Source: Candidatus Heimdallarchaeota archaeon
GTDB taxonomy: Archaea; Asgardarchaeota; Heimdallarchaeia; Heimdallarchaeales; Heimdallarchaeaceae
Reading direction: 5' to 3'
Assembly: GCA_019057815.1 (NCBI GenBank)
Contig: JAHLWR010000004.1
Span: 96,001-160,000 of the forward strand
DNA: 64,000 nucleotides
The stretch's first letter is position 1. Each line of letters begins with the position of its first letter. Below, in pieces: positions 6,125-38,944 of this stretch. A model generated the notes under the pieces. It worked only from the letters and a program-made list of their open reading frames with translations, was not told where the DNA came from and did no database searches. The position numbers were made by a program, and so were the translations under genes.

Positions 6125-8371
6125 ATGAAAAGACAATCAAAACAGTCTAAAATTACAATTACAAGCGTTCTATGTGTTTTATTGATAATTGGTGGAATAA
6201 GTACGTTCTCAAGTATGAGCGTAAATGCTACAACTGTATCCTATGAACCCCCCTCTCACTTCTCACTGATTCCACATGATTCTATTGAAGTTGCTTCTGA
6301 TAGTGACTTTGAGGTTTTTCCAGGCTCTGGAACAGCTGAAGATCCTTATGTTATTGAAGGGTATAATATTACAACATCAAGTTCAAGTGGAATTTATATT
6401 TATGGTACAACCAAATTTTTCATTGTTCGAAACTGTTATGTTGACGCAGAAAACTATGGAATTTTAATCTGGAATGTAACTTATGGAACTGTAACTATTG
6501 AGAATAACACGTTCAGCAACAACGGATGGGGTATCTATCTAGAAAATGATGGTTCTACCGTTTCCGACAACACTTGCAGCTACAACAACCACTATGGCAT
6601 CTATCTTTGGTATTCTTCTGGTTCTACTGTTGCCAACAACACTTGCAGCTACAACAACTGGAGAGGCATCATGTTTGAGACTTCTGGTAGTTCTACAGTG
6701 GTAAACAACACATGCAATAACAATGGTGGTGAAGGCATCACTCTTTCCTCTTCTGGTAGTTCGACGGTGGCAAACAACACATGCAATAACAATGGCGGGA
6801 AAAGCGTCTATCTTTACTATTCTGATAGTTCAACTGTTGCTAACAACACGTGTAGCTACAACGACTATGGTATCTGGCTTGAGGATTCTAATTCTTCAAC
6901 CGTTGCCAACAACACGTGTAATAACAACTACTACCATGGTATCTATCTAGACTCTGCTGATTCTTCTACTGTTGCCAACAACACGTGTAATAACAACTAC
7001 TACTATGGTATCTGGCTTGAGGGTTCTAGTTTTTGTGTTGTTACTTACAACCTTCTACAAGAAAATGGAGAATATGGAATATATTTACACTCTTATTCTG
7101 ATAACACTCTTATTCACCATAATAACCTTGTAGACAATAATCTAGGAGGAACATCACAAGCGTATGACGATGGAAATAGTAATACTTGGCATGATATTGA
7201 AACACTTGAAGGTAACTATTGGTCTGACTGGTCTGGAACAGATTCTTATGCTATTGATGGTGCTGGTGGTGCAAACGATCTTTATCCTCTTGATGAACCA
7301 ACTTTTTACCTTGGTTCTCCTGTTATTACAGAAATTATCCACTCTCCCTCTTCTCCGACAGAACTCGATACTGTTATTATTAATGCTATTGTAACTAACC
7401 CTCATGGTGTTCAAAGTGTTACTCTACACTACAGAGTCATTAGTGAAATATGGATAGAAGTTAGTATGACTCTTGTGAGTGGTGATCTCTATAATGTAGC
7501 TATAGGTCCTTTTGCAGTTAGCGACACAGTTGAATATTATATCACTGCAGTAGACAACTCTATTCACCACAATGAAGCTACAGGGGATAACTCAGGCTTA
7601 TATTATTCTTTTACAATCGATTCTTCTGACAATACTGGTCCTGCAATTAACGATATCGTACACTCTCCCTCTTCTCCGACAGAACTCAATACTATTAGTA
7701 TAAATGCTACAGTTACAGACGCTTCTAGTGTTCAAAGTGTTACTCTTCATTACAGAGTCAATAGTGGGACTTGGATAGAAGCTAGTATGACTATTAAAAG
7801 TGGTGATATTTATTCTGTGACTATTGGTTCCTTTGCAGTGAGTGATACTATCGAATATTACATTAGTGCCATAGATAACTCTGTTAATCATAATGAAGCT
7901 CTAGAAAATAATAACAGGCAATACTATAACCTATTCGTAGGTTCTTCTGATGTTATTGGTCCAAATATTACTAGTATTATTCATTCTCCCTCTTCTCCGA
8001 CAGAACTCGATACTGTCAATATCAATGCTACTGTTATTAGCCCTTATGGTGTGCATTCAGTTACTCTCCGCTATAGAATCAATAGTGGAACCTGGCAGAC
8101 AATCAGTATGGCGCGTATAAGTGGTGATTTTTACAGCGTAACTATCGGTTCCTTTGCAGTGAGTGATACTATCGAATATTACATTAGTGCACTAGATAAC
8201 TCTATCAGTCATAATTTGGCAATCAACGATAATTCTGGAGAGTATTACTCATTTACTATACTTTCTTATGAGGATGAAACAAGGACTGTAATGTTCCCTC
8301 TTCTCCTACCCGCGATAACTTCTCTATTCTTGGGCTTTGGAATAGTGGTGCAACAACGAAGAAAGAAATAA
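6125..8371 (+). CDS. Cell-surface protein: parallel beta-helix (NosD/CASH) repeats, three Ig-like domains, C-terminal TM anchor
   Basis: Signal peptide, GSGTAEDPYVIEG, repeated TVANNTC..N..GI.L, GNYWSDW, 3x HSPSSPTE domain, TM plus QQRRKK. Confidence 0.9.
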   Translation: MKRQSKQSKITITSVLCVLLIIGGISTFSSMSVNATTVSYEPPSHFSLIPHDSIEVASDSDFEVFPGSGTAEDPYVIEGYNITTSSSSGIYIYGTTKFFIVRNCYVDAENYGILIWNVTYGTVTIENNTFSNNGWGIYLENDGSTVSDNTCSYNNHYGIYLWYSSGSTVANNTCSYNNWRGIMFETSGSSTVVNNTCNNNGGEGITLSSSGSSTVANNTCNNNGGKSVYLYYSDSSTVANNTCSYNDYGIWLEDSNSSTVANNTCNNNYYHGIYLDSADSSTVANNTCNNNYYYGIWLEGSSFCVVTYNLLQENGEYGIYLHSYSDNTLIHHNNLVDNNLGGTSQAYDDGNSNTWHDIETLEGNYWSDWSGTDSYAIDGAGGANDLYPLDEPTFYLGSPVITEIIHSPSSPTELDTVIINAIVTNPHGVQSVTLHYRVISEIWIEVSMTLVSGDLYNVAIGPFAVSDTVEYYITAVDNSIHHNEATGDNSGLYYSFTIDSSDNTGPAINDIVHSPSSPTELNTISINATVTDASSVQSVTLHYRVNSGTWIEASMTIKSGDIYSVTIGSFAVSDTIEYYISAIDNSVNHNEALENNNRQYYNLFVGSSDVIGPNITSIIHSPSSPTELDTVNINATVISPYGVHSVTLRYRINSGTWQTISMARISGDFYSVTIGSFAVSDTIEYYISALDNSISHNLAINDNSGEYYSFTILSYEDETRTVMFPLLLPAITSLFLGFGIVVQQRRKK

Positions 8372-9421: not shown

Positions 9422-9675
9422 CTATGACTTTATTTTTTTACAAATTCTTTAGAAGTGCTTGGGCACATCATGGGGACGTTACATCCCCTCTTACACCACC
9501 CACACCCTCTTACAAGGATGCTTACGGTTCGCTTTTGGTTTTTTATTAGATGCAGACCTGAGGATTATAATGAAGTTAATGCATAGCTACAACCCTTTGA
9601 AGGATAATCTATATGACACTATATAGAATTCATTGATTAATACCATAATTTAAAATATATAAAAATTCCATCTAT
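9422..9675 (-). mobile_element. MITE A, TnpB-derived, omegaRNA-like
   Basis: Reverse-complement homologue of 12352-12557; CTAT at 9422-9425 and 9672-9675; right end ...GTCAT; intergenic. Confidence 0.75.
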
Positions 9676-9714
9676 TGGTAGAAACAACCAATCAAATAGT
9701 AAGGAGAAAAAACT

Positions 9715-10008
9715 ATGATAAGCAAATCTACAATAATTAATACCTTAAAACAAGAATTTTCATATCTTAAATCAAAGTATTATGTAAAAAAAATAGGTAT
9801 TTTTGGTTCATTTGCAAGGGATGAACAAAGAGAAACAAGTGATGTTGATATTATTGTAGATTTTAACCGACCAATTGGATTTTTCATATTTCTACAGTTG
9901 GAAGATTATATTAGTGAAAAACTTGGTATAAAAGTAGATTTAGTTACACCTGAAGCCTTGAAACCATTACTCAAGGAAGAAATATTAGAGGAGACAATCT
10001 ATGTCTAA
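9715..10008 (+). CDS. mntA: Minimal nucleotidyltransferase (MNT) antitoxin
   Basis: FGSFARDE...SDVDI and VDLVT motifs; overlaps the HEPN gene. Confidence 0.93.
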   Translation: MISKSTIINTLKQEFSYLKSKYYVKKIGIFGSFARDEQRETSDVDIIVDFNRPIGFFIFLQLEDYISEKLGIKVDLVTPEALKPLLKEEILEETIYV

Positions 10009-10345
10009 CAAAAGAGTAAGACTCTATCTACAAGATATAGAAGAATCAATTAACAAAATCCAATCATTCATTGAAGGAATGGGATATGATGATTTTTATT
10101 ATGACGAAAAGACAAAAGCAGCTGTAATTAGAATGCTCGAGATTATCGGTGAAGCTGTAAAAAATATTCCTAATGAAATTAGAATAAAATATGATAATGT
10201 CCCCTGGAAACCAATAGCAAGAATGAGAGATAAGCTAATTCACGCATATTTTGGAGTAAGTTATAAAATTGTGTGGGAAACAATTCAAAATGATCTTCCA
10301 CGTCTATCACAAACAATAAAAGCTATTCTAGAAGATGGAGTTTAA
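10001..10345 (+). CDS. hepT: HEPN (DUF86) RNase toxin
   Basis: IIGEA and RDKLIHAY (Rx4HxY) motifs. Confidence 0.93.
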   Translation: MSNKRVRLYLQDIEESINKIQSFIEGMGYDDFYYDEKTKAAVIRMLEIIGEAVKNIPNEIRIKYDNVPWKPIARMRDKLIHAYFGVSYKIVWETIQNDLPRLSQTIKAILEDGV

Positions 10346-10503
10346 AAATCATCCACGTACTAGGAAGTGTATTATTTCCAAGTAATTGAAAATAACTTCT
10401 CTTATACATCACTTGTTTTTCAAGTTTTGGTTAAACCAATCTAATGTCTCTTTAACAATTTCTAGGACATTCTTTAACACAGATTTTGCATGTAATACAA
10501 TCT

Positions 10504-11940
10504 TCATGATGAGTTTTTGTCCTGTTGTCTTATACGACAGACAGAGGTGAGTGTATTTATTAGAGGTCAAGATATAGCGCACAGGAGATACTCTATACTC
10601 ACTCTAAGCGGATACATCACGTATCCTCCTACCCCGTTCACCTTACATTTAGGTAAAGCTTTCGGATCGCTTTTTTTCAAGATATTGTAGGCAGCATTGA
10701 CATCAGCGTTGATCAGATGACCATGAGAGGATCTAAACAAGCCTCGAGTTATCCGTTTTCCAGCATAGTGCTTCCTAGCTTCTGGGAATTCGTTATCAAG
10801 GAAACTACATTTAGAGGTATACTTTTCGGGGATGGTCTCCACGTTTATCCCTCTCTCTGCTGCTTTGTAGCGTAAGATGTCGATGATTCGCATGAAGGGG
10901 ATGGTGACAAACATTTGGGTTATCTTCTTCCAGAAATGCATCCCTTGTTTCCATTTCTTGTTGTAGCCGATAATCACCTCATGTAGCCCTCGTTCTACCC
11001 ACAAGTCTACCAAGTAACAAGTGAGCTGGTGGATAGCTTCTTTAAGTTTCCTTCGCCACTTCTCCTTAAGCTTGTAGTAGGCTTGCCCATAACTGAGCCT
11101 AGTGTTTCCTTTCAGTAGCTGCCTTTGCTGTTGAGCATATTGGATCTGTAATTGTTTCTGTTTTTTCAAATAGAATTGTGTTATACTCTTTATTCCTTTC
11201 CCTGCATCCTTGATAACAATCGGTTGGTTCCCGAGGTTATCCACAAAGGTGGCAAGGTTGACCATCCCTAAATCTACCGCTCCCTTCCGTATCATCCGTT
11301 TCTGAACTTTAGGTAAGGTTTTCTGATACACAAGTTCAAGAGTATAGCCTACTCTTCGGGGGATGATTCGCACTTCTCTTAGCTTTGTAACGGAGGTCAA
11401 TCGTGTCTTGTAATTGTATCCCACTTTCTTTGGAAGCACTAACCACTCGTTGACGATTCTTGCTTGCTGATTGGTGAAAATCGCTACCACTTCCCCGTTC
11501 TTAGGTTTGTAATTCGGTGGCTTGGGCATAGCGAAGAACTGCTCAGGATTGCTTTTCCACTCCTTTAACGCTTGAAAAAATCCTTTCCAGTTTCTGCACA
11601 GGAGTTTGAGTGTGTGTTGTGCGGTGTGCGCAGGAAGCACGCGGTAACACTCTTCATGCTTAAGTAGCTTATTCAAGTCGTTATAGAATAGAAGTTTCTT
11701 CTCTTTGTTTAATGATCTTTTTATCAGAAAGTTTGCTCGATTATAGAGATTCTTTACTTGATGACACAGTGTGCTTAACGCTGGATGATAGTTCACTTCT
11801 ATACATTCCACTCTCAGCACTGTTGTCATCGCTTCTTTATCTAGATATTCTTATAAAAACTCTCTCAATATCTGCGCTAAACTATCCATTTAAACTGATT
11901 CATCTGTAGTTAATAGTACACCAAGACAAAAACCCATCAT
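10504..11940 (-). mobile_element. TnpB-only insertion element with terminal inverted repeats
   Basis: 16-bp inverted repeat ATGATGAGTTTTTGTC (10506-10521) vs GACAAAAACCCATCAT (11925-11940), 15/16; TCAT direct repeat at 10504-10507 and 11937-11940. Confidence 0.8.
10567..11829 (-). CDS. tnpB: TnpB with rearranged RuvC-II and no zinc finger
   Basis: AVDLG; IIGYN at the canonical Glu position; PEKYTSKCSFLD; RGLF; NADVNAAYNI. Confidence 0.93.
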   Translation of the reverse strand: MTTVLRVECIEVNYHPALSTLCHQVKNLYNRANFLIKRSLNKEKKLLFYNDLNKLLKHEECYRVLPAHTAQHTLKLLCRNWKGFFQALKEWKSNPEQFFAMPKPPNYKPKNGEVVAIFTNQQARIVNEWLVLPKKVGYNYKTRLTSVTKLREVRIIPRRVGYTLELVYQKTLPKVQKRMIRKGAVDLGMVNLATFVDNLGNQPIVIKDAGKGIKSITQFYLKKQKQLQIQYAQQQRQLLKGNTRLSYGQAYYKLKEKWRRKLKEAIHQLTCYLVDLWVERGLHEVIIGYNKKWKQGMHFWKKITQMFVTIPFMRIIDILRYKAAERGINVETIPEKYTSKCSFLDNEFPEARKHYAGKRITRGLFRSSHGHLINADVNAAYNILKKSDPKALPKCKVNGVGGYVMYPLRVSIEYLLCAIS

Positions 11941-12066
11941 AAAACCAACTAATAACATCTTCAGTACCTATAAAAGCTTTTTCTAAGTCTGGATTTTGGA
12001 CTACTAGTATATCTAAACATAGGACTATCCAAAAGTACTTACTAAATAAAGTGGTCAAAGAAAAAC

Positions 12067-12122
12067 ATGAAGAGTTTTTGTCTTCTTATCTCATAAAACG
12101 AGGTGAAAAAAACTCATTATGA
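12067..12122 (+). mobile_element. 56-bp mini-element made only of TnpB2-type ends
   Basis: ATGAAGAGTTTTTGTC ... GAAAAAAACTCATTATGA; ATGA at both junctions; both ends resemble the termini of 10504-11940. Confidence 0.55.
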
Positions 12123-12162
12123 TTTCAACAATTAGCCAAAGTATTTTTAAAACAAAATCACT

Positions 12163-12591
12163 ATGTTAGTTTTAGTATTCAATCAGATAGATAACGGTGA
12201 TGGTTATACTGACGGAGAAAAAGTAGATCGTGAGATAGATCCAACAGATCCTATTGATTATCCTATGGTACCAGAATTCTCGAGTTTATCTCTACTCATG
12301 TTATTACCTCTCCTAACAGTTATAAGCAGTTTTTTGTACATTTTTGTGGTGTTTATATAAGGTAGTATAAATTATCCTTTGAAGGATTGTAGATATGCAT
12401 CAACTTCATGGTGATCCTCAGGTCTACATCCAACAAAAACCCAAAAGCGAAACCGTAAGCATATTCGTGAGAAGATGTGGGCGGTGTAGGAGGGTATGTG
12501 GCGTACCCATGATGTGCTGAAGGCACTTCTAAAGGATTTGTACAAAATTCATGTCATAACTCTAGTTTTACGTAAAAGAAAGGAAGATTAA
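12163..12591 (+). pseudogene. 3' remnant of a surface protein (Asp-rich Ca-binding-type repeat, VPEF, TM, basic tail) split by MITE B
   Basis: DGYTDGE...DPTDPIDYP-VPEF; removing MITE B restores ...LLPLLTV|ITLVLRKRKED*. Confidence 0.75.
12322..12559 (+). mobile_element. MITE B, TnpB-derived, omegaRNA-like
   Basis: ATAA at 12322-12325 and 12556-12559; ends read inward ATAAGCAGTTTTTTGTACA and ATGACATGAATTTTGTACA; encodes GVGGYVAYP, matching the TnpB2 C-terminus GVGGYVMYP. Confidence 0.88.
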
Positions 12592-12815
12592 CTTCTTCCT
12601 CTTTTATTTCTTTTTTTCAAATACTAATTTGACCATTCCGTTTTTAAGTGGAAAGCAATTTTAGTTGATTTATAAAGAATGTCTATGACAAAAAAATCAT
12701 ATTCGTTCTTCAGAATTTGTTTTAACCTCCGAATACTATTTTCATCAACTTTAAGAAACGTACTTTAGAAAGATATTTATTACAGAATGATATTATTCCA
12801 CAAAGCTGTATTAAG

Positions 12816-13586
12816 ATGTATTATGATATAAATGGTATTAAAATGAACATAGTTTCTTTTGGTGATGGAGAAGAAACATTCCTTGGAGTTTCAGGTTTTA
12901 TTGCTAACTGGACCGTGTGGGGTTTTATTTTTGAGATAATGAGTAAAAAATGGAAATGTGTATCTTATAGTCCTCGTGGAAGTGGAGAGAGTCCTGCTCC
13001 AATTGAAACATTTTCACTACAAGCAGTAATTGATGATTTATTTGGTGTGATGGATGCTTTGGAGATTGAGAAGTGTTATCTCGGAGGAGAATCTCTGGGT
13101 GGCTCTATTGCTCTTTTAGCTGCTATGCAACAACCTGAGCGATTTAAAGGTCTTATAATTGTTAATACTTCGGGTCCAAATGTGAGACCACTTAGTGAAG
13201 AAATGAAACAGTTTATGGATTTAATAAGTACAGATCAAAAAGCAGCAATAAGTACATGTGTCGAATCAATTTTCCCAGAACCTGATATTGAACACATTAA
13301 AAACAATGCGCTTCATTCCATGCTCCATGCTGATCCAGAAACAACCATCCGTGTACTTAAATTACTTAATGAAGGAGAAACAAATGTTCCTGTTCAGAAT
13401 ATCAATATACCAACTCTAATTATCTATGGAGATTTAGATGGGCCATATACAATAGAAAATTGTAAATATCTGGCAAGAACAATACCAAATGCAGAACTGG
13501 AAGTGATTAAAGGAGCGGGGCATGTGCCATTAATCACCTATCCTAAAGAAGTCGTTGAAGCAATAGAAAGAAGATTTTCAATCTAA
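12816..13586 (+). CDS. Alpha/beta hydrolase
   Basis: Nucleophile elbow GESLGG, YGDLD, GAGH. Confidence 0.92.
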   Translation: MYYDINGIKMNIVSFGDGEETFLGVSGFIANWTVWGFIFEIMSKKWKCVSYSPRGSGESPAPIETFSLQAVIDDLFGVMDALEIEKCYLGGESLGGSIALLAAMQQPERFKGLIIVNTSGPNVRPLSEEMKQFMDLISTDQKAAISTCVESIFPEPDIEHIKNNALHSMLHADPETTIRVLKLLNEGETNVPVQNINIPTLIIYGDLDGPYTIENCKYLARTIPNAELEVIKGAGHVPLITYPKEVVEAIERRFSI

Positions 13587-13650
13587 AAAATTTATTCTTT
13601 CTTTCCTTGATTTGTAGTTAAGAATAACATCTTCATTAACATTAAGAAAC

Positions 13651-14481
13651 ATGCATGAGAAAGATTTTTATGTAGAATATTGCTTTTCTACAAGGTGTAC
13701 TAGGATGTTTTACGATATAAATGGAATTAAGATAAACACTGTTTCTTTTGGTTCAGGAGAAGAAACCTTTCTAGGTATAAGTGGTTTTGTTGCAGATTGG
13801 CATGTTTGGATGCATGTTTTCGAGCTTTTAAGCACTAAAATGCGCTGTATTGGTTATGATCATCGTGGTGCAGGAGAAAGTACAGCACATCCTGAATCAA
13901 TTACAAAACAATCATATGTTGATGATTTGATAGGAGTAATGGATCAATTAGGTGTTGACCAATGTATTCTAGGAGGAGAGTCTTTTGGTGGTACCGTTGC
14001 TATTCTAGCAGCTTTACAACATCCTGAACGTTTCAAAGGTTTAGTAATCGTTAATACTTCTAGCTCAAGCGCAACACCACTTAATGAAGGAGAAAAACAA
14101 TTCATAAATCTAATAAGAACAAATCACTTATTAGCCATGGAACAGTTCATTGAAAATGTCTTCCCAGAACCAAATATTGAACACCTTAAACGCTGGGGAG
14201 TTCACATCTGTATGAAACCTAAACCTGAAGTTGCTGTTCGTTGTATTGAATTAGGAGCTGAAGGTGACACTAATGTACCAGTTCAAGATATTAAGATTCC
14301 AACACTTGTTGTTTATGGAGATAAAGATTCTGAAGCAGCAATAAAACATTGTACTTATCTGGCTAAGACTATCCCTAATGCAACGCTAAAAGTAGTTGGA
14401 GGAGCAGGACATGTTCCAATACTTACTCGACCATATGAGGTTGTAGAAACAATAGAAAAACTATTTCCTGAAATAAAATAA
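13651..14481 (+). CDS. Alpha/beta hydrolase, tandem paralog (likely start 13705)
   Basis: YDHRGAGES, GESFGG, YGDKD, GAGH; aligns end to end with the preceding gene from MFYDINGIK. Confidence 0.92.
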   Translation: MHEKDFYVEYCFSTRCTRMFYDINGIKINTVSFGSGEETFLGISGFVADWHVWMHVFELLSTKMRCIGYDHRGAGESTAHPESITKQSYVDDLIGVMDQLGVDQCILGGESFGGTVAILAALQHPERFKGLVIVNTSSSSATPLNEGEKQFINLIRTNHLLAMEQFIENVFPEPNIEHLKRWGVHICMKPKPEVAVRCIELGAEGDTNVPVQDIKIPTLVVYGDKDSEAAIKHCTYLAKTIPNATLKVVGGAGHVPILTRPYEVVETIEKLFPEIK

Positions 14482-14932
14482 GTTCCCTTAAATCATTTTT
14501 TCATAACTAATTTAACTAAACCTTTTATCTTCTTTTTTAAGTAAATTACCTAGTTTCATTTTGACATGTTTATTTGTCTGAATATTATCTGTAGTCACAT
14601 TATTGGAGCGTTTTAGTAATTTATAAATTATTGTAATTAAATATTATCTTCATAGAAGAAGTGAGAAAAAATGGAATGAGAATTATATACTCTATATATC
14701 ATATTCTGCTGAAGAGAGTTAATAATATGAAAAAAATAAACACTTTGTTTACAAGAATATCAACATTCTGAAAGAATTTAAAGAAAGTGAAGATGTAAAA
14801 AAATTACTTGTAACAGCTTTTGAGGAAGTAAAACAGAATAAATTGATTACTATTCTTGAAACTTGTTCTACATTCCAAAGAGATTGGGAATTCTGGGGGA
14901 ATAGGAGCTGAGATTTCATATGAAGAAGAAGT

Positions 14933-16753
14933 TTAGTCTTCTAGAAATTTCCTTTTAAAGAAATCTAAAGTAAGTGTATATTCACGGATTAGTGAATCTT
15001 GACCAATCAAGAGATGTCCTTTTCCTGAATCTTCTAGATATTCAAAATCTTCACCTTCATTCTTACCAATTTTAAGCAGTTTTTCTTTGAAATTTCTAGC
15101 TTCTTCTACAGGGCATCTCATATCATTTATTGCTTGAATAATTAGGATTGGAGCTCTAATATTTTCAACAAAATTAAGTGGACTTCTATCTTCATACAAT
15201 TCTTTATTTTCTTCGTAGGTACCAAATAAATATTCTATGAACATTTTGAATCCTGGAACACTTTTATCATACATGTTTTTCCAATGGGTTATTCCAACTG
15301 AGGAAGCACCAGCATTCCACCCAGCCTCTGCATATTTAGTTAGCTGCAAATTAGTCATATACCCACCATATGATCCACCGAAAATCCCTATTTTATTTGA
15401 ATCGACAAAATCTAATGATTCCAAATATTTCTTTGCATAGACGTAGTCTTTCCCATCTATTCCTCCAATATCTTTGATAATTGTTTCTCTGAATTCTCGA
15501 CCATATCCATAAGAACCTCGAATGTGTGGTGACATCACTACAAATCCTTCAGAGACCAAGACTTGTCCAAAACCGTAGAAACTCAATGTAAGTCTTCCTC
15601 CTGGACCTCCTGGTGCAAGAATTACTGCAGGATATTTCTTTCCTGATTCTATCTCTGGTTTGTATAGAACTGCATTTAATTTCTCACCATCAAATGTTTT
15701 ATACTGTACCTTTTCAGCCTTAACAAAATCTTCTTCTGTAAAACCTGCAAATTCTTTGATTATAGGTATCTCTTTTTTGTTTTCTAAATCATATAATGCT
15801 AGAATCCCTGGTGATGTTGGATCTGATCGGCTATAGATTAGATATTTATCATTATAGCAGAATTTTGTCGAGTAAATTTCTCCTTCTAATTCAGGAATTT
15901 CTTCATCTCCTGTTTCAATATCATATATCACAATATATCGTCTAAAAGGTGAATCTCTTAGAGCTAATATTTTCCTTTTATCTAAACTAATATTTACGGG
16001 AATCTCATCATATTCTGTTTTGCTAAGCCAAGTCAATTCTTCTTTTGTTGTATTATATAGACCTATCTTGGTTGTTCCTTCAACATCTGAAGATAATAAT
16101 AGCAATTCTCCATCTCGAGATGTTTCATATAACAGATCTGCTGAATCTGAAGATAACGAGATTATTTTTCTTTGTTCAGTTCCATCACTTTTTATCTCAT
16201 AAATATCTCTATTCTTTCTGTTCTCAGTATCATTTGAATGATAATAAACTAGCCCATTTTCACACCAAAAACCCTCACCACAAGGATATTTGTGGAAAGT
16301 TATCTGTTTCTTTTCTTTTGTTTCAACATTGAGAGTATAGAGATCACTAGGACCATTCTGATCTGATAATATTAGTAATGATTCTTTATTTGGACTAATA
16401 TCGCTAATAAAATCTATTGATTTTTCATTTTCAATCAGAGTTGTTTCTGTTTGTTCTTTTGTGTTATAGAGATATACATTGAAACGTTCATCCCCATCTT
16501 TATCTTTGTTAACAATCATTTCTTCCCCTTTCTTCCACCATCTAAAACTTGTACTAGTTGTTAGATTAGGAACAGTTGTGTATTCTTGATATTCCAAAGT
16601 TTCAAGATTAATTTGATAAACTTTTGAGGGTCCATCCTTATCGCTTGCAAAAAAAATCTCTTCTCTACCTAAATAGCAATAAAAAGTGTATGAAGGAATT
16701 TTAGCTATCTGTTCGATAGGTATTTTTTTCATACAGCGTATTTCGTCTATCAA
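14933..16753 (-). CDS. S9 family peptidase (acylaminoacyl-peptidase-like)
   Basis: Beta-propeller N-terminus, GGPG, RGSYGYG, GGSYGG, NDMRC, GH. Confidence 0.93.
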   Translation of the reverse strand: MIDEIRCMKKIPIEQIAKIPSYTFYCYLGREEIFFASDKDGPSKVYQINLETLEYQEYTTVPNLTTSTSFRWWKKGEEMIVNKDKDGDERFNVYLYNTKEQTETTLIENEKSIDFISDISPNKESLLILSDQNGPSDLYTLNVETKEKKQITFHKYPCGEGFWCENGLVYYHSNDTENRKNRDIYEIKSDGTEQRKIISLSSDSADLLYETSRDGELLLLSSDVEGTTKIGLYNTTKEELTWLSKTEYDEIPVNISLDKRKILALRDSPFRRYIVIYDIETGDEEIPELEGEIYSTKFCYNDKYLIYSRSDPTSPGILALYDLENKKEIPIIKEFAGFTEEDFVKAEKVQYKTFDGEKLNAVLYKPEIESGKKYPAVILAPGGPGGRLTLSFYGFGQVLVSEGFVVMSPHIRGSYGYGREFRETIIKDIGGIDGKDYVYAKKYLESLDFVDSNKIGIFGGSYGGYMTNLQLTKYAEAGWNAGASSVGITHWKNMYDKSVPGFKMFIEYLFGTYEENKELYEDRSPLNFVENIRAPILIIQAINDMRCPVEEARNFKEKLLKIGKNEGEDFEYLEDSGKGHLLIGQDSLIREYTLTLDFFKRKFLED

Positions 16754-16879
16754 TATTTAAATCTAGAACATATATCTCTAATGTGAATCACAAAATTGAA
16801 GATTCCCAAACATACTAAACACACCCACTTTCGACTTATCTTACAAAAGAACTCTATAGATATTTTGACAACATTTAAT

Positions 16880-16897
16880 TATAAGTAATCACTTATA
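16880..16897. promoter_or_regulatory. Putative ArsR operator 1
   Basis: TATAAGTAATCACTTATA just upstream of the arsR start; 17/18 identical to the centre of operator 2. Confidence 0.7.
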
Positions 16898-16903
16898 CTC
16901 TTA

Positions 16904-17275
16904 ATGTCAATGAAGAAGGAGATACTTGAGGTTTCAGAGATTTTCAAAGCGTTATCGGATCCTACAAGGTTAAGATTGATCAGATTACTTGCGTCCAATA
17001 TGGAAGAAAAATTGTGCGTTGTGGATTTAGCAGTCAAACTTGGTGTATCACAACCCGCTACATCACAACACCTAAAAGTTCTAAAGACTGTTAAAATCCT
17101 CTATTCAGAAAAAGAAAGACCCAAGATATACTATTTCCTGAATCTTGTTGAGTTCAGAAGACAGAAGAAACTTGTTGATAAAATGTATGATTTTGCGTTC
17201 ACTAGATGTTCTCAAGGAGGACTGTGTGAAGATTGTCCATTTAGAGATGACTGTGAGGACGTCTCTATTGAATAA
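16904..17275 (+). CDS. ArsR/SmtB transcriptional regulator with C-terminal 4-Cys tail
   Basis: FKALSDPTRLRLI, LCVVDL, SQPATSQHLKVL; tail CSQGGLCEDCPFRDDC. Confidence 0.93.
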   Translation: MSMKKEILEVSEIFKALSDPTRLRLIRLLASNMEEKLCVVDLAVKLGVSQPATSQHLKVLKTVKILYSEKERPKIYYFLNLVEFRRQKKLVDKMYDFAFTRCSQGGLCEDCPFRDDCEDVSIE

Positions 17276-17331
17276 ATCAATTTAATGTTAGCTTCGAAAA
17301 ACCTGAATCGAAGCGAGATGCAGATTAGGAA

Positions 17332-17363
17332 ATAAGTATATAAGTAATTACTTATATACTTAT
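17332..17363. promoter_or_regulatory. Perfect 32-bp palindrome, putative ArsR operator 2
   Basis: ATAAGTATATAAGTAATTACTTATATACTTAT. Confidence 0.75.
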
Positions 17364-17385
17364 AGCGCCTAATGAATTTAAGAAA

Positions 17386-18153
17386 GTGGATAATATGAAC
17401 AAGGCTGTAGATATGAAAAATGAAACAGAAATGAAGTATAATTGGAGAAGTATAATTACTTGGAGTTTTTTGGGGTTGGTTTTTGTGTTAATAGTAATTA
17501 TGACTTTTATGAGAACCCCTGAACAAATAACGAACAAACTTACAATAATCAGTAGTCAATTGAAGTACTATTTCCTTGCAATGCATATTGTAATTTTTCT
17601 TTTACTGGGAACTGGAATGGTATGGAAAAGATATAGGAATCAGATCTTCTTTACAATAATACTTATTCTTTCGCTATCTAGCACTATTGTTTCAAGTATC
17701 TATGTAGTTATACCAAATATCATCTTCTTTGGGGTCATAACAGTCATAATCCTTATTTCGTTTATATCAAAGAAATTAAAATTTGATTTAGAGAATGCTA
17801 AGATTATTGATTGGATATTTTCTAGTATTGGATTAATTATTGGTTTTTGGTATCTACATTGGGTTGAGGGTCCAATAGCTTTGAATGCTCTTCTTTATTC
17901 GCCCTTAGGTGGAGTAAATTGCCCTACTTTAGTCATGATAACAGCTGTATTGATACTTGCAAAGAAACCAAGGCCTATCATGTTGACAACATTTGTTGGA
18001 GCATTAACAATTTATTTTGGGTTTTTCGGTATGATACTGCTTGGTGCTTATGTAGACATAGCTTTAATTTTGTGTGGGGCGTATCTGATAATCAAAGTTA
18101 TGATCAGCAGAGTTTATACAAGAAGAGACAATGGAAAGATTAGTACTAGTTAG
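17386..18153 (+). CDS. Multi-pass membrane protein, likely ArsR-regulated
   Basis: 7-8 TM helices, SPLGGVNCPT motif. Confidence 0.8.
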   Translation: MDNMNKAVDMKNETEMKYNWRSIITWSFLGLVFVLIVIMTFMRTPEQITNKLTIISSQLKYYFLAMHIVIFLLLGTGMVWKRYRNQIFFTIILILSLSSTIVSSIYVVIPNIIFFGVITVIILISFISKKLKFDLENAKIIDWIFSSIGLIIGFWYLHWVEGPIALNALLYSPLGGVNCPTLVMITAVLILAKKPRPIMLTTFVGALTIYFGFFGMILLGAYVDIALILCGAYLIIKVMISRVYTRRDNGKISTS

Positions 18154-18202
18154 TGCAAAAATTTCAACTTAACATTATTAGAAAAGTATTATTTCAAAGG
18201 AT

Positions 18203-18850
18203 TTGGAATCAGCTTCCCTAACATTTTTATTTGTTTTGATTGAATTCTGGTTTATGAACATCTTCCTTGTCAGACATGGTGAAACAGATTACGGAAAAAA
18301 ACATTTCACAACAGGGCACATTGATATTCCTTTAAATGAGACTGGAAAAAAAGAAGCGCAAGCTACAGCTAAATTTCTAAAAGGAAGAAATATAGTAAAA
18401 ATACTCTCTTCAAGTTTGAGTAGAGCAAGTGAAACAGCTGAAATTATAGCATCAGAACTTAATCTGCCAATTGTAGAATATGATGAGCTCATAGAACATA
18501 CTTCAGGGAAACTTGACGGTGTATCACTCAAAGTATTCTTAGATAAGTTGAAGAGCGTCGGGGATTTTAATAAGATGGTTCTACAGTCAGGAGGGGAACG
18601 TTGGAGTGTATTCACAGAACGAGTATGGAATAAGTTTCTTGATATTGTGAAAGAAAATAAAGATGATGGTAACATCTTAATTGTAACTCATGGAGGAGTT
18701 ACTCGTACAATTATTTCTGAAATATTTGGATCTCCTTACCTTAAAGCACTTTCGCAGGGAAGTTGCTGTATAAACGTCATTAGTTACGATAAAGAAAAAG
18801 AAAATAAGTTCCGTGTGGAACTTGTTAACTACACATACCATATGATATGA
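18203..18850 (+). CDS. Histidine phosphatase family protein (likely start 18254)
   Basis: RHGET, SSLSRASETA and VTHGG motifs. Confidence 0.93.
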   Translation: MESASLTFLFVLIEFWFMNIFLVRHGETDYGKKHFTTGHIDIPLNETGKKEAQATAKFLKGRNIVKILSSSLSRASETAEIIASELNLPIVEYDELIEHTSGKLDGVSLKVFLDKLKSVGDFNKMVLQSGGERWSVFTERVWNKFLDIVKENKDDGNILIVTHGGVTRTIISEIFGSPYLKALSQGSCCINVISYDKEKENKFRVELVNYTYHMI

Positions 18851-18915
18851 ATTTTGTATAGATTCTTTAGAAGTGCCTACAGCACATCATGGGAACGCCA
18901 CATACCCTCTTACAC
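18840..18915 (-). mobile_element. MITE C, right-end portion; left end unresolved
   Basis: Reverse complement GTGTAAGAGGGTATGTGGCGTTCCCATGATGTGCTGTAGGCACTTCTAAAGAATCTATACAAAATTCATATCAT aligns with 12485-12557. Confidence 0.8.
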
Positions 18916-29408: not shown

Positions 29409-32027
29409 CTATATACTTTTTTTCTTAATAGAACCGATATAAGCGATTACAAGGATATATAATGGAACAAATAATAGCGAAATCGAAGACTGAGTCACTT
29501 CAGGAATGTTGAGCAAAACAGTTACAATAACAATATCAATAGCATAGTTATCTGCAAAATCATAGACAATTATTGTAATATTGTAAATACCAGCAGTTAA
29601 ATAGTCAATGTTCCATGAAATAGGAGATGAAGAATCCCACGAGTTACTAGTTTTTAAAGTTCCATTTTGATATATTTCATAGTATGATGGATTTGTATCA
29701 TCAGCTATCCAACTTAAAATATTTCCTGCAGTGTCTTCCACCATTTGAAAATCACTTAAAGGGGATAAGGAGGGGGATTCTTGATCAAGTATATGAATAA
29801 TGATAATGTCATAGAAGTTGTTCCTTGCTTTATCAAAAACAACTAAAGTGAAATTATATGTGCCATGATGTAGTTCTGATAAATCGATAACAATAGGTGA
29901 ACCAGAAATCCATTCATTTTGCATGTAAGAACTACCATTCTTTAAGACCTGATAATAATCAGTGTTTACATCCTCAGCAATCCATGTAATATTTATATCA
30001 ACTGCACCTTCAAGATAAGTTTCTTCATCAGGGTGATTATAAAACCTAAAAATCGTTGGTATTGTTGTATCAATAGTAAACAATGAATATGTTGTAAAAT
30101 TCTGTCCTTCAAAAGTCACTTGAACTGTTAAATTATAATCCCCATCTTCAAGATTTGCGATAGAAGATCCACTAGGTAAATTACCAAGTGAGATATTGTT
30201 TAAGAATACTGTTGCAATACCTATACTGGTTGAATAATCTAGTATTACAGTGTCACTTGCATAATATACATTATCTAAGGGAGAGTTTATCTGAATGATT
30301 GGAGGATAAAAATAGACAATGAAACTGTAGTGGTCGTAGTCACTAGAATCGCATCGTAGAGATAGGTAGTAAGTACCTGCTAAAGGAACAGAAACGTTCA
30401 ACCATCCAGAACTGTAAGAACTTCCGATGGCCTTGCTACCAAAACTCGAATCAACACTTAAAATGGAGGTACCAAGCCAGCTTGTACCACTATGTTCTAT
30501 ATAGACGCTAATGTTACCAGCATCAGGGACAGCGAAAGCATAACAATCATGGTAGTCAACTTCATTGTCATATGTAAAGTACCCTTGACCCATAGACCCA
30601 TAATACAAAACGTTCATGGATATTTCTAGAGCTGTCAAAGTTGTTTCCCCAGCATCAGTACCAGAACCAGCATCGTTTTGTCCATGTGAAAACCAATAAA
30701 CATATGAAATGGTGAAACTGTAATGATCGTAATCACTAGGATCGCAACGGAGAGATAGGTAGTAAGTACCTGCTAAAGGAACAGAAACGTTCAACCATCC
30801 AGAACTGTAAGAACTTCCGATGGCCTTGCTACCAAAACTCGAATCAACACTTAAAATGGAGGTACCAAGCCAGCTTGTACCACTATGTTCTATATAGACG
30901 CTAATGTTACCAGCATCAGTAACGGTGAAAGCATAGCAATCTTTAGCATCAACTTCATAGTTATCATTATAAAAACCCTGTCCCATGGTTCCAGAATATT
31001 GTGTATCATATTGCACAACAATGGCTGTTAAAGTTGTTTCCCCAGCATCAGTACCAGAACCAGCATCGTTTTGACTAGGAAAAGCCCAATAAACATATGA
31101 AATGGTGAAACTGTAATGATCGTAATCACTAGGATCGCAACGGAGAGATAGGTAGTAAGTACCTGCTAAAGGAACAGAAACGTTCAACCATCCAGAACTG
31201 TAAGAACTTCCGATGGCCTTGCTACCAAAACTCGAATCAACACTTAAAATGGAGGTACCAAGCCAGCTTGTACCACTATGTTCTATATAGACGCTAATGT
31301 TACCAGCATCAGGGACAGCGAAAGCATAACAATCATGATAGTCAACTTCATTGTCATACGTAAAGTATCCTTGACCCATAGACCCATAATACAAAGCGTT
31401 CATGGATATTTCTAGAGCTGTCAAAGTAGTTTCCCCAGTATCAGTACCAGAACCAGCATCGTTTTGACTAGGAAAAGCCCAATAAACATATGAAATGGTG
31501 AAACTGTAATGATCGTAATCACTAGGATCGCAACGGAGAGATAGGTAGTAAGTACCTGCTAAAGGAACAGAAACGTTCAACCATCCAGAACTGTAAGAAC
31601 TTCCGATGGCCTTGCTACCAAAACTCGAATCAACACTTAAAATGGAGGTACCAAGCCAGCTTGTACCACTATGTTCTATATAGACGCTAATGTTACCAGC
31701 ATCAGGGACAGCGAAAGCATAACAATCATGATAGTCAACTTCATTGTCATATGTAAAGTACCCTTGACCCATATCCCCGAAATAAAGGATGTCCAAATCC
31801 ACTATAACAGCTGTAGATGTAGTTTCCCCCGCATCACCACCAGAGTTAGCATCATTTTGAGTAGAATCAACAATCATTGATTGTGAAAAAGGATTATTGG
31901 AGGATTTTTGAAAGGAAATTTGTTTATCATCAAAAATTTGTCTTGGTTCTAGTACGCTAATAGAGGATAATAAAATCGTTAACAAAAATAACGATGACAC
32001 AATTGCTTTATTTTTTACATTCAACAT
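29409..32027 (-). CDS. Surface protein with four tandem PPC-like (QNDAGSG) domains, Ig-like domains and a C-terminal TM anchor
   Basis: Signal peptide; 4 x 131-aa repeats; IPEV-TM-KKK tail. Confidence 0.88.
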   Translation of the reverse strand: MLNVKNKAIVSSLFLLTILLSSISVLEPRQIFDDKQISFQKSSNNPFSQSMIVDSTQNDANSGGDAGETTSTAVIVDLDILYFGDMGQGYFTYDNEVDYHDCYAFAVPDAGNISVYIEHSGTSWLGTSILSVDSSFGSKAIGSSYSSGWLNVSVPLAGTYYLSLRCDPSDYDHYSFTISYVYWAFPSQNDAGSGTDTGETTLTALEISMNALYYGSMGQGYFTYDNEVDYHDCYAFAVPDAGNISVYIEHSGTSWLGTSILSVDSSFGSKAIGSSYSSGWLNVSVPLAGTYYLSLRCDPSDYDHYSFTISYVYWAFPSQNDAGSGTDAGETTLTAIVVQYDTQYSGTMGQGFYNDNYEVDAKDCYAFTVTDAGNISVYIEHSGTSWLGTSILSVDSSFGSKAIGSSYSSGWLNVSVPLAGTYYLSLRCDPSDYDHYSFTISYVYWFSHGQNDAGSGTDAGETTLTALEISMNVLYYGSMGQGYFTYDNEVDYHDCYAFAVPDAGNISVYIEHSGTSWLGTSILSVDSSFGSKAIGSSYSSGWLNVSVPLAGTYYLSLRCDSSDYDHYSFIVYFYPPIIQINSPLDNVYYASDTVILDYSTSIGIATVFLNNISLGNLPSGSSIANLEDGDYNLTVQVTFEGQNFTTYSLFTIDTTIPTIFRFYNHPDEETYLEGAVDINITWIAEDVNTDYYQVLKNGSSYMQNEWISGSPIVIDLSELHHGTYNFTLVVFDKARNNFYDIIIIHILDQESPSLSPLSDFQMVEDTAGNILSWIADDTNPSYYEIYQNGTLKTSNSWDSSSPISWNIDYLTAGIYNITIIVYDFADNYAIDIVIVTVLLNIPEVTQSSISLLFVPLYILVIAYIGSIKKKSI
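30320..31865. repeat. Four tandem 393-bp intragenic repeats
   Basis: GATAGGTAGTAAGTACCTGCTAAAGG recurs at 30361, 30754, 31147 and 31540. Confidence 0.97.
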
Positions 32028-37183: not shown

Positions 37184-37610
37184 CTCTTAATCAAGAGAGG
37201 TGATTCAGAGGTATACATAGCATTTTTTGAAAAAAAGTTAGATTTATGCATATATTCTTGGCTATTAGCCTTCATAAATACATTTGTACCCATAATGTCT
37301 CATTAATATATTCACTCGACAATAAATAAACATTCCTATAAAAAAGCCGATTTATAAGAATGACCTTACACTCTGAAACGTTCGATTTATCGAAAAATAC
37401 TCCCTAGAGAAGATAAATGTTCATCATGAACTAAATTTTATCTTTTAAATCATCTGGAACATTCAAAAATACTATTGTACAAGCGTATAATATAGAAACT
37501 TCTTGTTCATTTTTTATAAAGGTTTTAGAGTAATTGTCTTTTTCCTCGATGAAAGATCTAAAATTCCTAAAACATGCTATTAGGTATCTATCACTTTTGA
37601 AGGTTAAATT

Positions 37611-38807
37611 ATGAAAAAGCAATCAAAACAATCGAAAGTTTCAATTAGAAGAGTTTTATATGTTTCAATTTTAATTATTGGAATAAGTACGTTCTCTAGT
37701 ATGAGAGTAAATGCTACAAATGTCTCTTATGACTCACCATCTTATTCCTCATTAACACCTCATGATCCAATATCCATTACTTCTGATAACAATTTCACCG
37801 ATTACAGTTTTCCAGGAACAGGAACGGAAGAAGATCCTTATGTTATTGAAGGATATAACATTACAACAACGAGTAATAGAGGCATTTACATTACTGATAC
37901 AACAAAAAATTTTACTGTTCGTAACTGCTATGTTAAAGCAGGAGAGTATGGAATTTATATCAGAAATGTAGCTGGTGGTACAGCGACTGTCATTAATAGC
38001 ATGTGCACCAATAACAACAACATAGGTATCTATCTTTACTCTTCTGGTAGTTCTACTGTTGCCAACAACACATTCAACAATAACTTCTATGGCATCTTTT
38101 TTTACTCTTCTGATTTTTGTGTCTTTACTTACAATGTTCTACAAGAAAATGAAGACTATGGAATCAGGTTATATTCTGATTGTGATAATAATATCATTCA
38201 CCATAATACCTTTGTAGACAATAATCCAGGAGGAACTTCACAAGCTCTTGATGCAGGATCTAACAACTTTTGGTATGACTCTACAACACTTGAAGGCAAC
38301 TATTGGTCCGATTGGTCAGGAACTGGTTCTTATTCTATTGATGGTGCTGCTGGAGCAATCGACCTATATCCGCTTGATGAACCTGTAGACATTGGTCCTC
38401 CACTAATTGTTAATATTATCCACTCACCCTCTACACCTACAGAACTAGATACTGTCAGTATCAATGCTACTGTTACAGACTATTCTGGTGTTAAATCAGT
38501 TACTCTCCATTACAGGATCAATGATGGAACTTTGATAGAAGTTAGTATGACTCTTGTAAGTGGTGATCTTTACAGCGTAACTATTGGTCCTTTTGCGGTT
38601 AGTGATATTATAGAATATTATGTCAGTGCTGAAGATAATTCTTTTAACAACAATGAAGCCATCAATGACAACACTGGTCTATATTACTCATTTACTGTTT
38701 CTGAGGCTATATCAGAATTTCAAACGCTCTCTCCTCTTCTCTCCCTTACGATAATTCTTCTATTCTTGGGTTTCAGTTTCGTATTGCTAAAACGAAGAAA
38801 GAAATGA
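37611..38807 (+). CDS. Short NosD/beta-helix surface protein, paralog of 6125-8371
   Basis: Near-identical leader MKKQSKQSK, GTEEDPYVIEG, GNYWSDW, one HSPSTPTE domain, ISEF-TM-KRRKK. Confidence 0.9.
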   Translation: MKKQSKQSKVSIRRVLYVSILIIGISTFSSMRVNATNVSYDSPSYSSLTPHDPISITSDNNFTDYSFPGTGTEEDPYVIEGYNITTTSNRGIYITDTTKNFTVRNCYVKAGEYGIYIRNVAGGTATVINSMCTNNNNIGIYLYSSGSSTVANNTFNNNFYGIFFYSSDFCVFTYNVLQENEDYGIRLYSDCDNNIIHHNTFVDNNPGGTSQALDAGSNNFWYDSTTLEGNYWSDWSGTGSYSIDGAAGAIDLYPLDEPVDIGPPLIVNIIHSPSTPTELDTVSINATVTDYSGVKSVTLHYRINDGTLIEVSMTLVSGDLYSVTIGPFAVSDIIEYYVSAEDNSFNNNEAINDNTGLYYSFTVSEAISEFQTLSPLLSLTIILLFLGFSFVLLKRRKK

Positions 38808-38944
38808 TTTTTTACTTCCCTTTTTTTTTCCTTTTCTTTAAACATTTTAACCTGATTTTATGTCATAGTTAAACATAACAAAATTTGTATAAAAAAATCT
38901 CTCATGAAATTGTGCCCTTTTGTTAACAAAGCAGCAGCAGTATT

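Follow-up and report, generated by a model that had tools for sequence, protein, structure and literature searches.

Three copies, designated A, B and C, of a mobile and protein-less element of about 232 bp belonging to a Heimdallarchaeota family are present in the 64,000-nucleotide stretch of Candidatus Heimdallarchaeota archaeon analyzed here, hereafter called the window (contig JAHLWR010000004.1; G000:C1:96001-160000). B is the only one of these flagged copies to form a full cassette. The mini-element is probably a non-autonomous deletion derivative of Heimdallarchaeota tnpB-only elements acting as a stand-alone omegaRNA cassette, and its most likely role would be the protection of its own insertion site by means of a TnpB nuclease made elsewhere. 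The initial annotation of the window had described each of the three MITEs (transposable elements of the miniature inverted-repeat type) as a promoter, a scaffold and a unique guide taken from the flank. This description is incorrect in the case of C and open to doubt for A. Good support for it in B and at the family level comes from the conserved TATA box, the paired changes, the intact pseudoknot, the empty sites and the TTAT motif held in common with tnpB elements.

Copies, ends and insertion sites

Using A, B and C as BLAST queries, 10 full-length copies and 3 right-end fragments were retrieved from the source genome, and a match was obtained in 21 of the 30 family genomes searched. The alignment set consisted of 61 near-full copies from 14 Heimdallarchaeota genomes, representing 55 distinct sites, with lengths mostly of 226-235 bp and typically about 232 bp. 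These copies are mobile, as attested by exact empty sites, and contain neither an effector or transposase gene nor a conserved open reading frame (ORF); a small internal ORF was rejected because its length is not conserved among copies. Rfam returned nothing near the gathering score in the region. In one genome, a mini-element is interrupted by a gene-less insert of 315 nt (L021:1185-1500, G022:C81) whose left end matches CCGT-type IS607 elements and which is possibly a second stand-alone omegaRNA family.

Copy B (12324..12557, forward strand) is an intact gene-less element of 234 bp made up of a left end, a promoter, an omegaRNA scaffold and a right end, with a covariance model (CM) score of 201 bits. 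Its joined flanks are exactly the orthologous sequence of the sister genome G001 and, conversely, G000 contains exact empty sites for two copies of G001, giving three exact orthologous empty sites altogether. In these, insertion took place directly after TTAT without duplication of the target. A TA duplication of the IS630 type is therefore excluded and was rejected, and the guide is host DNA; an AT duplication would be sequence-equivalent to an AT recombination core. The TTAT of B (12320..12323, forward strand), its predicted target-adjacent motif (TAM), is host DNA, and its AT corresponds to that found in the right end. TTAT precedes the left end at 43/55 distinct sites and ATAT at 5/55, and TTAT was likewise found at 44 of the 56 scored sites of tnpB elements. 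As initially reported, homology stops at TCAT(A): an A follows the terminal TCAT at 52/55 mini-element sites and is part of the empty sites too, while only 31 of 89 tnpB elements have an A after the right end. Each end bears an AT and short motifs that are inverted with respect to the other end, in an IS607-like manner, and imperfect 19-nt terminal inverted repeats are present.

No conserved hairpin was detected at the left end in the copy alignment, and the ends are unlike those of the two Y1 elements that the genome contains. The IS607 TnpAs found in the genome family carry other ends than the mini-elements; as the genomes are incomplete, a matching TnpA is to be regarded as not found rather than absent. 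A parent element with ends identical to those of the mini-element was not found either. At the tnpB loci L097, L137, L145, L149 and L150, end motifs vary by subfamily and the left and right motifs always match, which suggests several recombinase specificities. Next to six mini-element copies (L037, C30:7820, L018, L019, L039, L010), a gene in divergent orientation begins 25-35 nt away from the left end; the TTATA targeted there may correspond to a host TATA box rebuilt by the element end.

All three flagged copies are homologous to the tnpB 3' end. The earlier statement that they retain the tnpB 3' segment and not the gene holds in this respect, except that C possesses the last 74 nt only. Copy A (9424..9627, reverse strand; CM score 176 bits) is degraded, with its scaffold at 9424-9599 and several broken pairs. 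Divergence has affected its left end, a T-to-C change is found in its TATA box (9620-9627), and the strands of its pseudoknot are mismatched. Copy C (18842..18915, reverse strand) is a right-end remnant limited to helices P5 and P6 and the end, devoid of TATA box, 5' domain, P3 and P4. It overlaps the stop of a histidine-phosphatase gene (18203-18850), and a C-like remnant with an identical flank occurs in G001 (L113).

Promoter and RNA structure

The TTTATATA box noted in B at 12352 is present and corresponds to an archaeal TATA box (12352..12359, forward strand), located 29 nt upstream of the predicted start at about 12381 and conserved across the family: over 54 copies, a TTTAWATA box is maintained at a constant distance, the spacer being more variable. 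In 61 of 79 tnpB loci, the start codon is preceded by the same box at 27-30 nt, and this tnpB-like spacing suggests that the cassette has kept a tnpB-type promoter.

A structural model comprising helices P1 to P6 was obtained from the thermodynamic fold of the consensus, and paired changes were counted on a tree of 52 copies. In B, the scaffold of about 177 nt includes a cassette-specific 5' domain (12384..12431, forward strand), where P1 (12384-12394/12422-12431) encloses P2 (12398-12402/12409-12413). The tnpB-derived core (12452..12508, forward strand), delineated by nhmmer and by paired changes, contains P3/P4 (12452-12485) and the P5 stem (12492-12496/12504-12508). P6 (12514..12526, forward strand; 94.6% of the cells paired) is the GTGC/GCAC stem that had been correctly described as carrying different loops. 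Single-sequence folding of B was unremarkable (z=-1.4), and alternative pairings (35-40/110-115 and 107-112/146-151) are possible beside P1-P6.

The structure is under selection. Changes of both partners on the same branch reached 4 in P1 (0.38 expected), 5 in P2 (0.57) and 8 in P4 (1.41), with p values of about 0.001 or less; P1-P4 and P6 together account for 22 double changes versus 4.75 expected, the pair being kept in 17. Over the alignment, 95.9% of the cells are paired as compared to 32-48% in slid registers, a value reached by 0/500 shuffles, although relatedness inflates this control. Changes making a G-U pair exceed those making A-C (39 versus 16, p=0.017), which points to the sense-strand RNA as the constrained molecule. 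The peptide GVGGYVAYP read in B by the initial annotation is indeed encoded, but it is not conserved in the family, where GGVGGDVASP is the commonest form, and this also places the constraint on the RNA. Taken from the alignments, these patterns indicate that selection on the RNA structure would have persisted after gene loss.

In the right ends of 89 tnpB elements, P4 and P5 pairs covary at E<0.05 and one long-range pair appears at E=0.15. The latter points to a pseudoknot between the P5 loop (12498..12503 in B, forward strand) and the last six bases of the element (12552-12557). It is intact, with 6/6 pairs, in 48/52 mini-element copies, and loop and end shift together: GTGATG/CATCAT in 55 tnpB ends, GTGRTT/AATCAT in 26 and GTGRCR/TGTCAT in 45 mini-elements. 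This pseudoknot adjacent to the guide, overlooked in the initial annotation, has co-evolved with the element's own end. The three sequences of the GGGTATG-TGG-CGTACCC type, previously presented as a covarying hairpin, are all present and one pair of this hairpin covaries among the 89 tnpB ends, but no excess of paired changes was observed within the mini-elements. In view of the pseudoknot, this 7-bp hairpin is more adequately interpreted as a stem of 5 bp whose loop takes part in the pseudoknot.

These results make it unlikely that the family is a passive MITE without a working guide RNA, whose internal 180 nt would be a hitch-hiking relic or DNA needed for mobilization. Such an element would account neither for the compensatory changes in P1, P2 and P4 and the tolerance of G-U pairs, nor for a pseudoknot matching the element's own end, nor for a TATA box retained despite a variable spacer. 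It is compatible with the decay of two of the three flagged copies and with the lack of per-pair significance within the mini-element family and, the mobilizer not having been found, DNA-level requirements could hide in the interior. Far shorter end-only or internally deleted derivatives nevertheless exist, both on C16 and C43 and in the window itself, where an element-like unit of 52 bp (12067..12118, reverse strand), recognized by its sequence beside the tnpB element, consists of group 1 ends alone, without scaffold; they suggest that the ends do not need the interior.

The scaffold core matches every group 1/2 tnpB 3' end in nhmmer searches, and the CM also hits tnpB ends. For the P1/P2 domain, no homologue was detectable in tnpB loci, an origin from tnpB coding sequence was not detectable (p=0.12) and viral contigs gave no match. 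This domain is found again, combined with different ends, in a lineage of 282 bp (L283) as well as in the chimeras L072, L075 and L076. L283:1416-1700 (G013:C71) is a divergent cassette having the same 5' domain with a group 1-type end and pseudoknot, and the three chimeras join the cassette 5' part to right or left ends of tnpB elements, the modules being exchangeable. That this structurally selected domain has no tnpB homologue and recurs with different ends is also in favor of an expressed RNA with another selfish role, either as a decoy or regulator titrating TnpB or through a 5' domain aiding mobilization or stability. This is improbable, considering that guided cutting requires precisely a guide-adjacent pseudoknot and a TAM-compatible target and that nothing ties the 5' domain to a transposase. 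It is also improbable that P1/P2 gives the RNA a second job, for example in the control of TnpB loading or processing or in assistance to an AT-core recombinase; if so, the element would be a specialized RNA-only parasite and not a simple deletion derivative.

Partner nucleases, guides and likely role

A group 1 tnpB-only element (TnpB2) is located in the window at 10506..11938 (reverse strand). Its gene (10567-11829) encodes 420 aa with D186, E335 and D376 and scores above the NF040570 cut-off. IIGYN is followed by E335, a pattern which, as read from the sequence, fits a rearranged RuvC-II. In active rearranged TnpBs, the canonical RuvC-II glutamate is lost and an alternative is found about 45 residues downstream (PMC10530073). 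The PDB gave no sequence hit for this TnpB. In the source genome, 11 tnpB genes of groups 1 and 2 are of full length and encode the aspartates of RuvC-I and RuvC-III, 8 of them with the displaced-glutamate pattern, and they have the TTAT motif in common with the mini-elements. The mini-element core is closest to group 2 tnpB ends (C46, C31, C24) and less close to TnpB2, which is a candidate partner but not the closest one. A third TnpB group, represented in the window at 519-1760 (413 aa), displays TTGTACA end motifs similar to those of the mini-element; it was rejected as parent on account of its different scaffold, and no relative was found at E<1e-60 in the 30 family genomes. At another locus (L105, G000:C33:134700-136200), a tnpB element sits within an apparent peptidase gene whose frame is restored by removal at TTAT.

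The three guides initially quoted for A, B and C are present in the sequence. That of B (12558..12573, forward strand, 16 nt assumed) is host flank and equals the sequence 3' of TTAT at the G001 empty site. It is sense to a gene remnant whose C-terminal, sorting-signal-like tail is split by B (12262-12323 and 12558-12590) and intact in G001. The guides have no second site in the genome above chance, the best non-self matches (14-15/16) and TAM-adjacent matches (12-14/16) being equal to those of random TTATA controls. For one copy, the genome also contains a paralogous empty site, which has a mismatch at guide position 2, a single case compatible with escape.

The regulatory alternative of the initial annotation, a dispersed guide repertoire adopted by the host for antisense or transcriptional control, is very improbable. 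The nearest downstream ORF is convergent at 18/27 sites versus 38% of intergenic TTATA sites (p=0.002; crude ORF calls), so that some guides would face gene ends, but this bias is not significantly different from that of tnpB elements (p=0.10). The absence of additional targets above chance argues against such a repertoire, as do the mostly strain-specific insertion sites, guides no better conserved than the flank beyond in four orthologous insertion pairs, and the sense orientation of B's guide. Furthermore, the TnpBs keep their RuvC catalytic residues and look catalytically intact, unlike the RNA-guided repressors TldR, which combine a nuclease-dead RuvC with guides matching conserved promoters.

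Guides without other matches above chance, together with TnpBs having the D-E-D residues, fit self-retention (homing) and not host regulation; trans loading for this purpose is the likely mechanism. A recombinase encoded elsewhere, which was not found, would insert the element at TTAT|A without duplication, in accordance with the geometry of the empty sites. The tnpB-type promoter would then drive an RNA of about 177 nt extended by 16-20 nt of host flank, and TnpB from an intact element, most likely of group 2, would bind this scaffold in trans. The complex would cut TTAT followed by the flank, an arrangement confined to chromosome copies without the element. With the occupied copy as template, repair would restore or spread the element, as deduced from IS605/IS607 work, and copies losing the promoter or pseudoknot, such as A and C, would decay.

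Several observations weigh against this stand-alone cassette. P3, P5 and P6 are individually non-significant on the tree of 52 copies (P6: 4 double changes versus 1.8 expected, p=0.09; P5: 2 versus 1.2, p=0.34). With a tree null, an all-pairs test of the 52 mini-elements, performed using our own R-scape-like script and not R-scape, gave no pair at E<0.05 (best E=1.85), its top-ranked pairs being helix pairs. Recombination among copies, as in the three chimeras, weakens the tree-based statistics. The scaffold is unlike native ones after P5 and bears a foreign 5' domain, so its compatibility with TnpB is assumed. Finally, IS607 and Y1 queries revealed no transposase beside any of about 150 tnpB loci; as those of the genome have other ends, the mobilizer was not found.

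Elsewhere in the window, an MNT/HEPN toxin-antitoxin pair of the MntA-HepT type (9715-10345) lies between copy A and the tnpB element. A coding repeat of 393 nt occurs in four copies at 30320-31864, and duplicated genes for beta-helix (NosD) surface proteins with 69- and 321-nt repeats are located at 6553-8249 and 37607-38829.

Comparison with known systems

Stand-alone omegaRNAs, PATEs, Fanzor ghosts and the idea of a guide repertoire are already published (PMC10055086, PMC10691335, PMC10432273). PATEs of Geobacillus (Meers et al.) are protein-less derivatives of tnpB elements, often encoding omegaRNAs that need TnpB in trans (PMC10055086). The mini-elements are likewise protein-less tnpB-element derivatives, but PATEs have IS200/IS605 subterminal hairpins and a Y1 transposase. 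Here, short inverted end motifs surround a common AT dinucleotide, the ends differ from those of the two Y1 elements, the left end has no conserved hairpin and no Y1 gene was found beside tnpB.

In OMEGA systems, mobilized stand-alone omegaRNAs work in trans (Altae-Tran 2021, summarized in PMC10691335). As far as they are described in that summary, they resemble the mini-elements in being mobile, in lacking an effector or transposase gene, in having effector loci in the same genome and in deriving the guide from the flank. Those OMEGA RNAs are reportedly IscB-linked. The mini-elements are of the TnpB type and archaeal, possess a TATA box of their own together with an additional 5' domain, and would function in trans. 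Their scaffold is homologous to co-resident tnpB 3' ends; the 3' pseudoknot, flank guide and left-end target motif are found together in B and not in A or C.

In Spizellomyces punctatus, the ghost loci of Fanzor (Saito et al.) produce functional RNAs supplied in trans, and a guide repertoire was proposed for them (PMC10432273). Both are gene-less, flanked by inverted repeats and provided with distinct ends, altered stems and an extra conserved interior, with no transposase found. The ghosts are eukaryotic, of about 550 nt and with RNAs demonstrated to be functional, whereas the mini-elements are archaeal, of 232 nt and with predicted RNAs.

The IS607 element CboIStron recombines at a GG core dinucleotide, requires a pseudoknot at the scaffold 3' end for CboTnpB activity, and its CboTnpB is active with omegaRNA supplied in trans (10.1101/2023.11.20.567912). 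Pseudoknots of this type are a general feature of TnpB and Cas12 guides (PMC10097598). The mini-elements have in common with it short and symmetric inverted end motifs, a core dinucleotide present at both ends and in the target, exact empty sites without duplication and the 3' pseudoknot. They differ by an AT core instead of GG and by the lack of an intron, and no serine TnpA with matching ends was found.

No new kind of system is established by this comparison. The novelty resides in the cassette-specific 5' domain and in an AT-core mobilizer, to which the mini-elements point and which could not be traced to any transposase found. The cassette offers a compact, putatively self-transcribed scaffold for an uncharacterized Asgard TnpB clade whose rearranged RuvC is related in pattern to that of Fanzors. 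With more than 60 copies having their own predicted promoter, known empty sites and a co-evolved pseudoknot, the family constitutes a natural data set for the role of stand-alone omegaRNAs.

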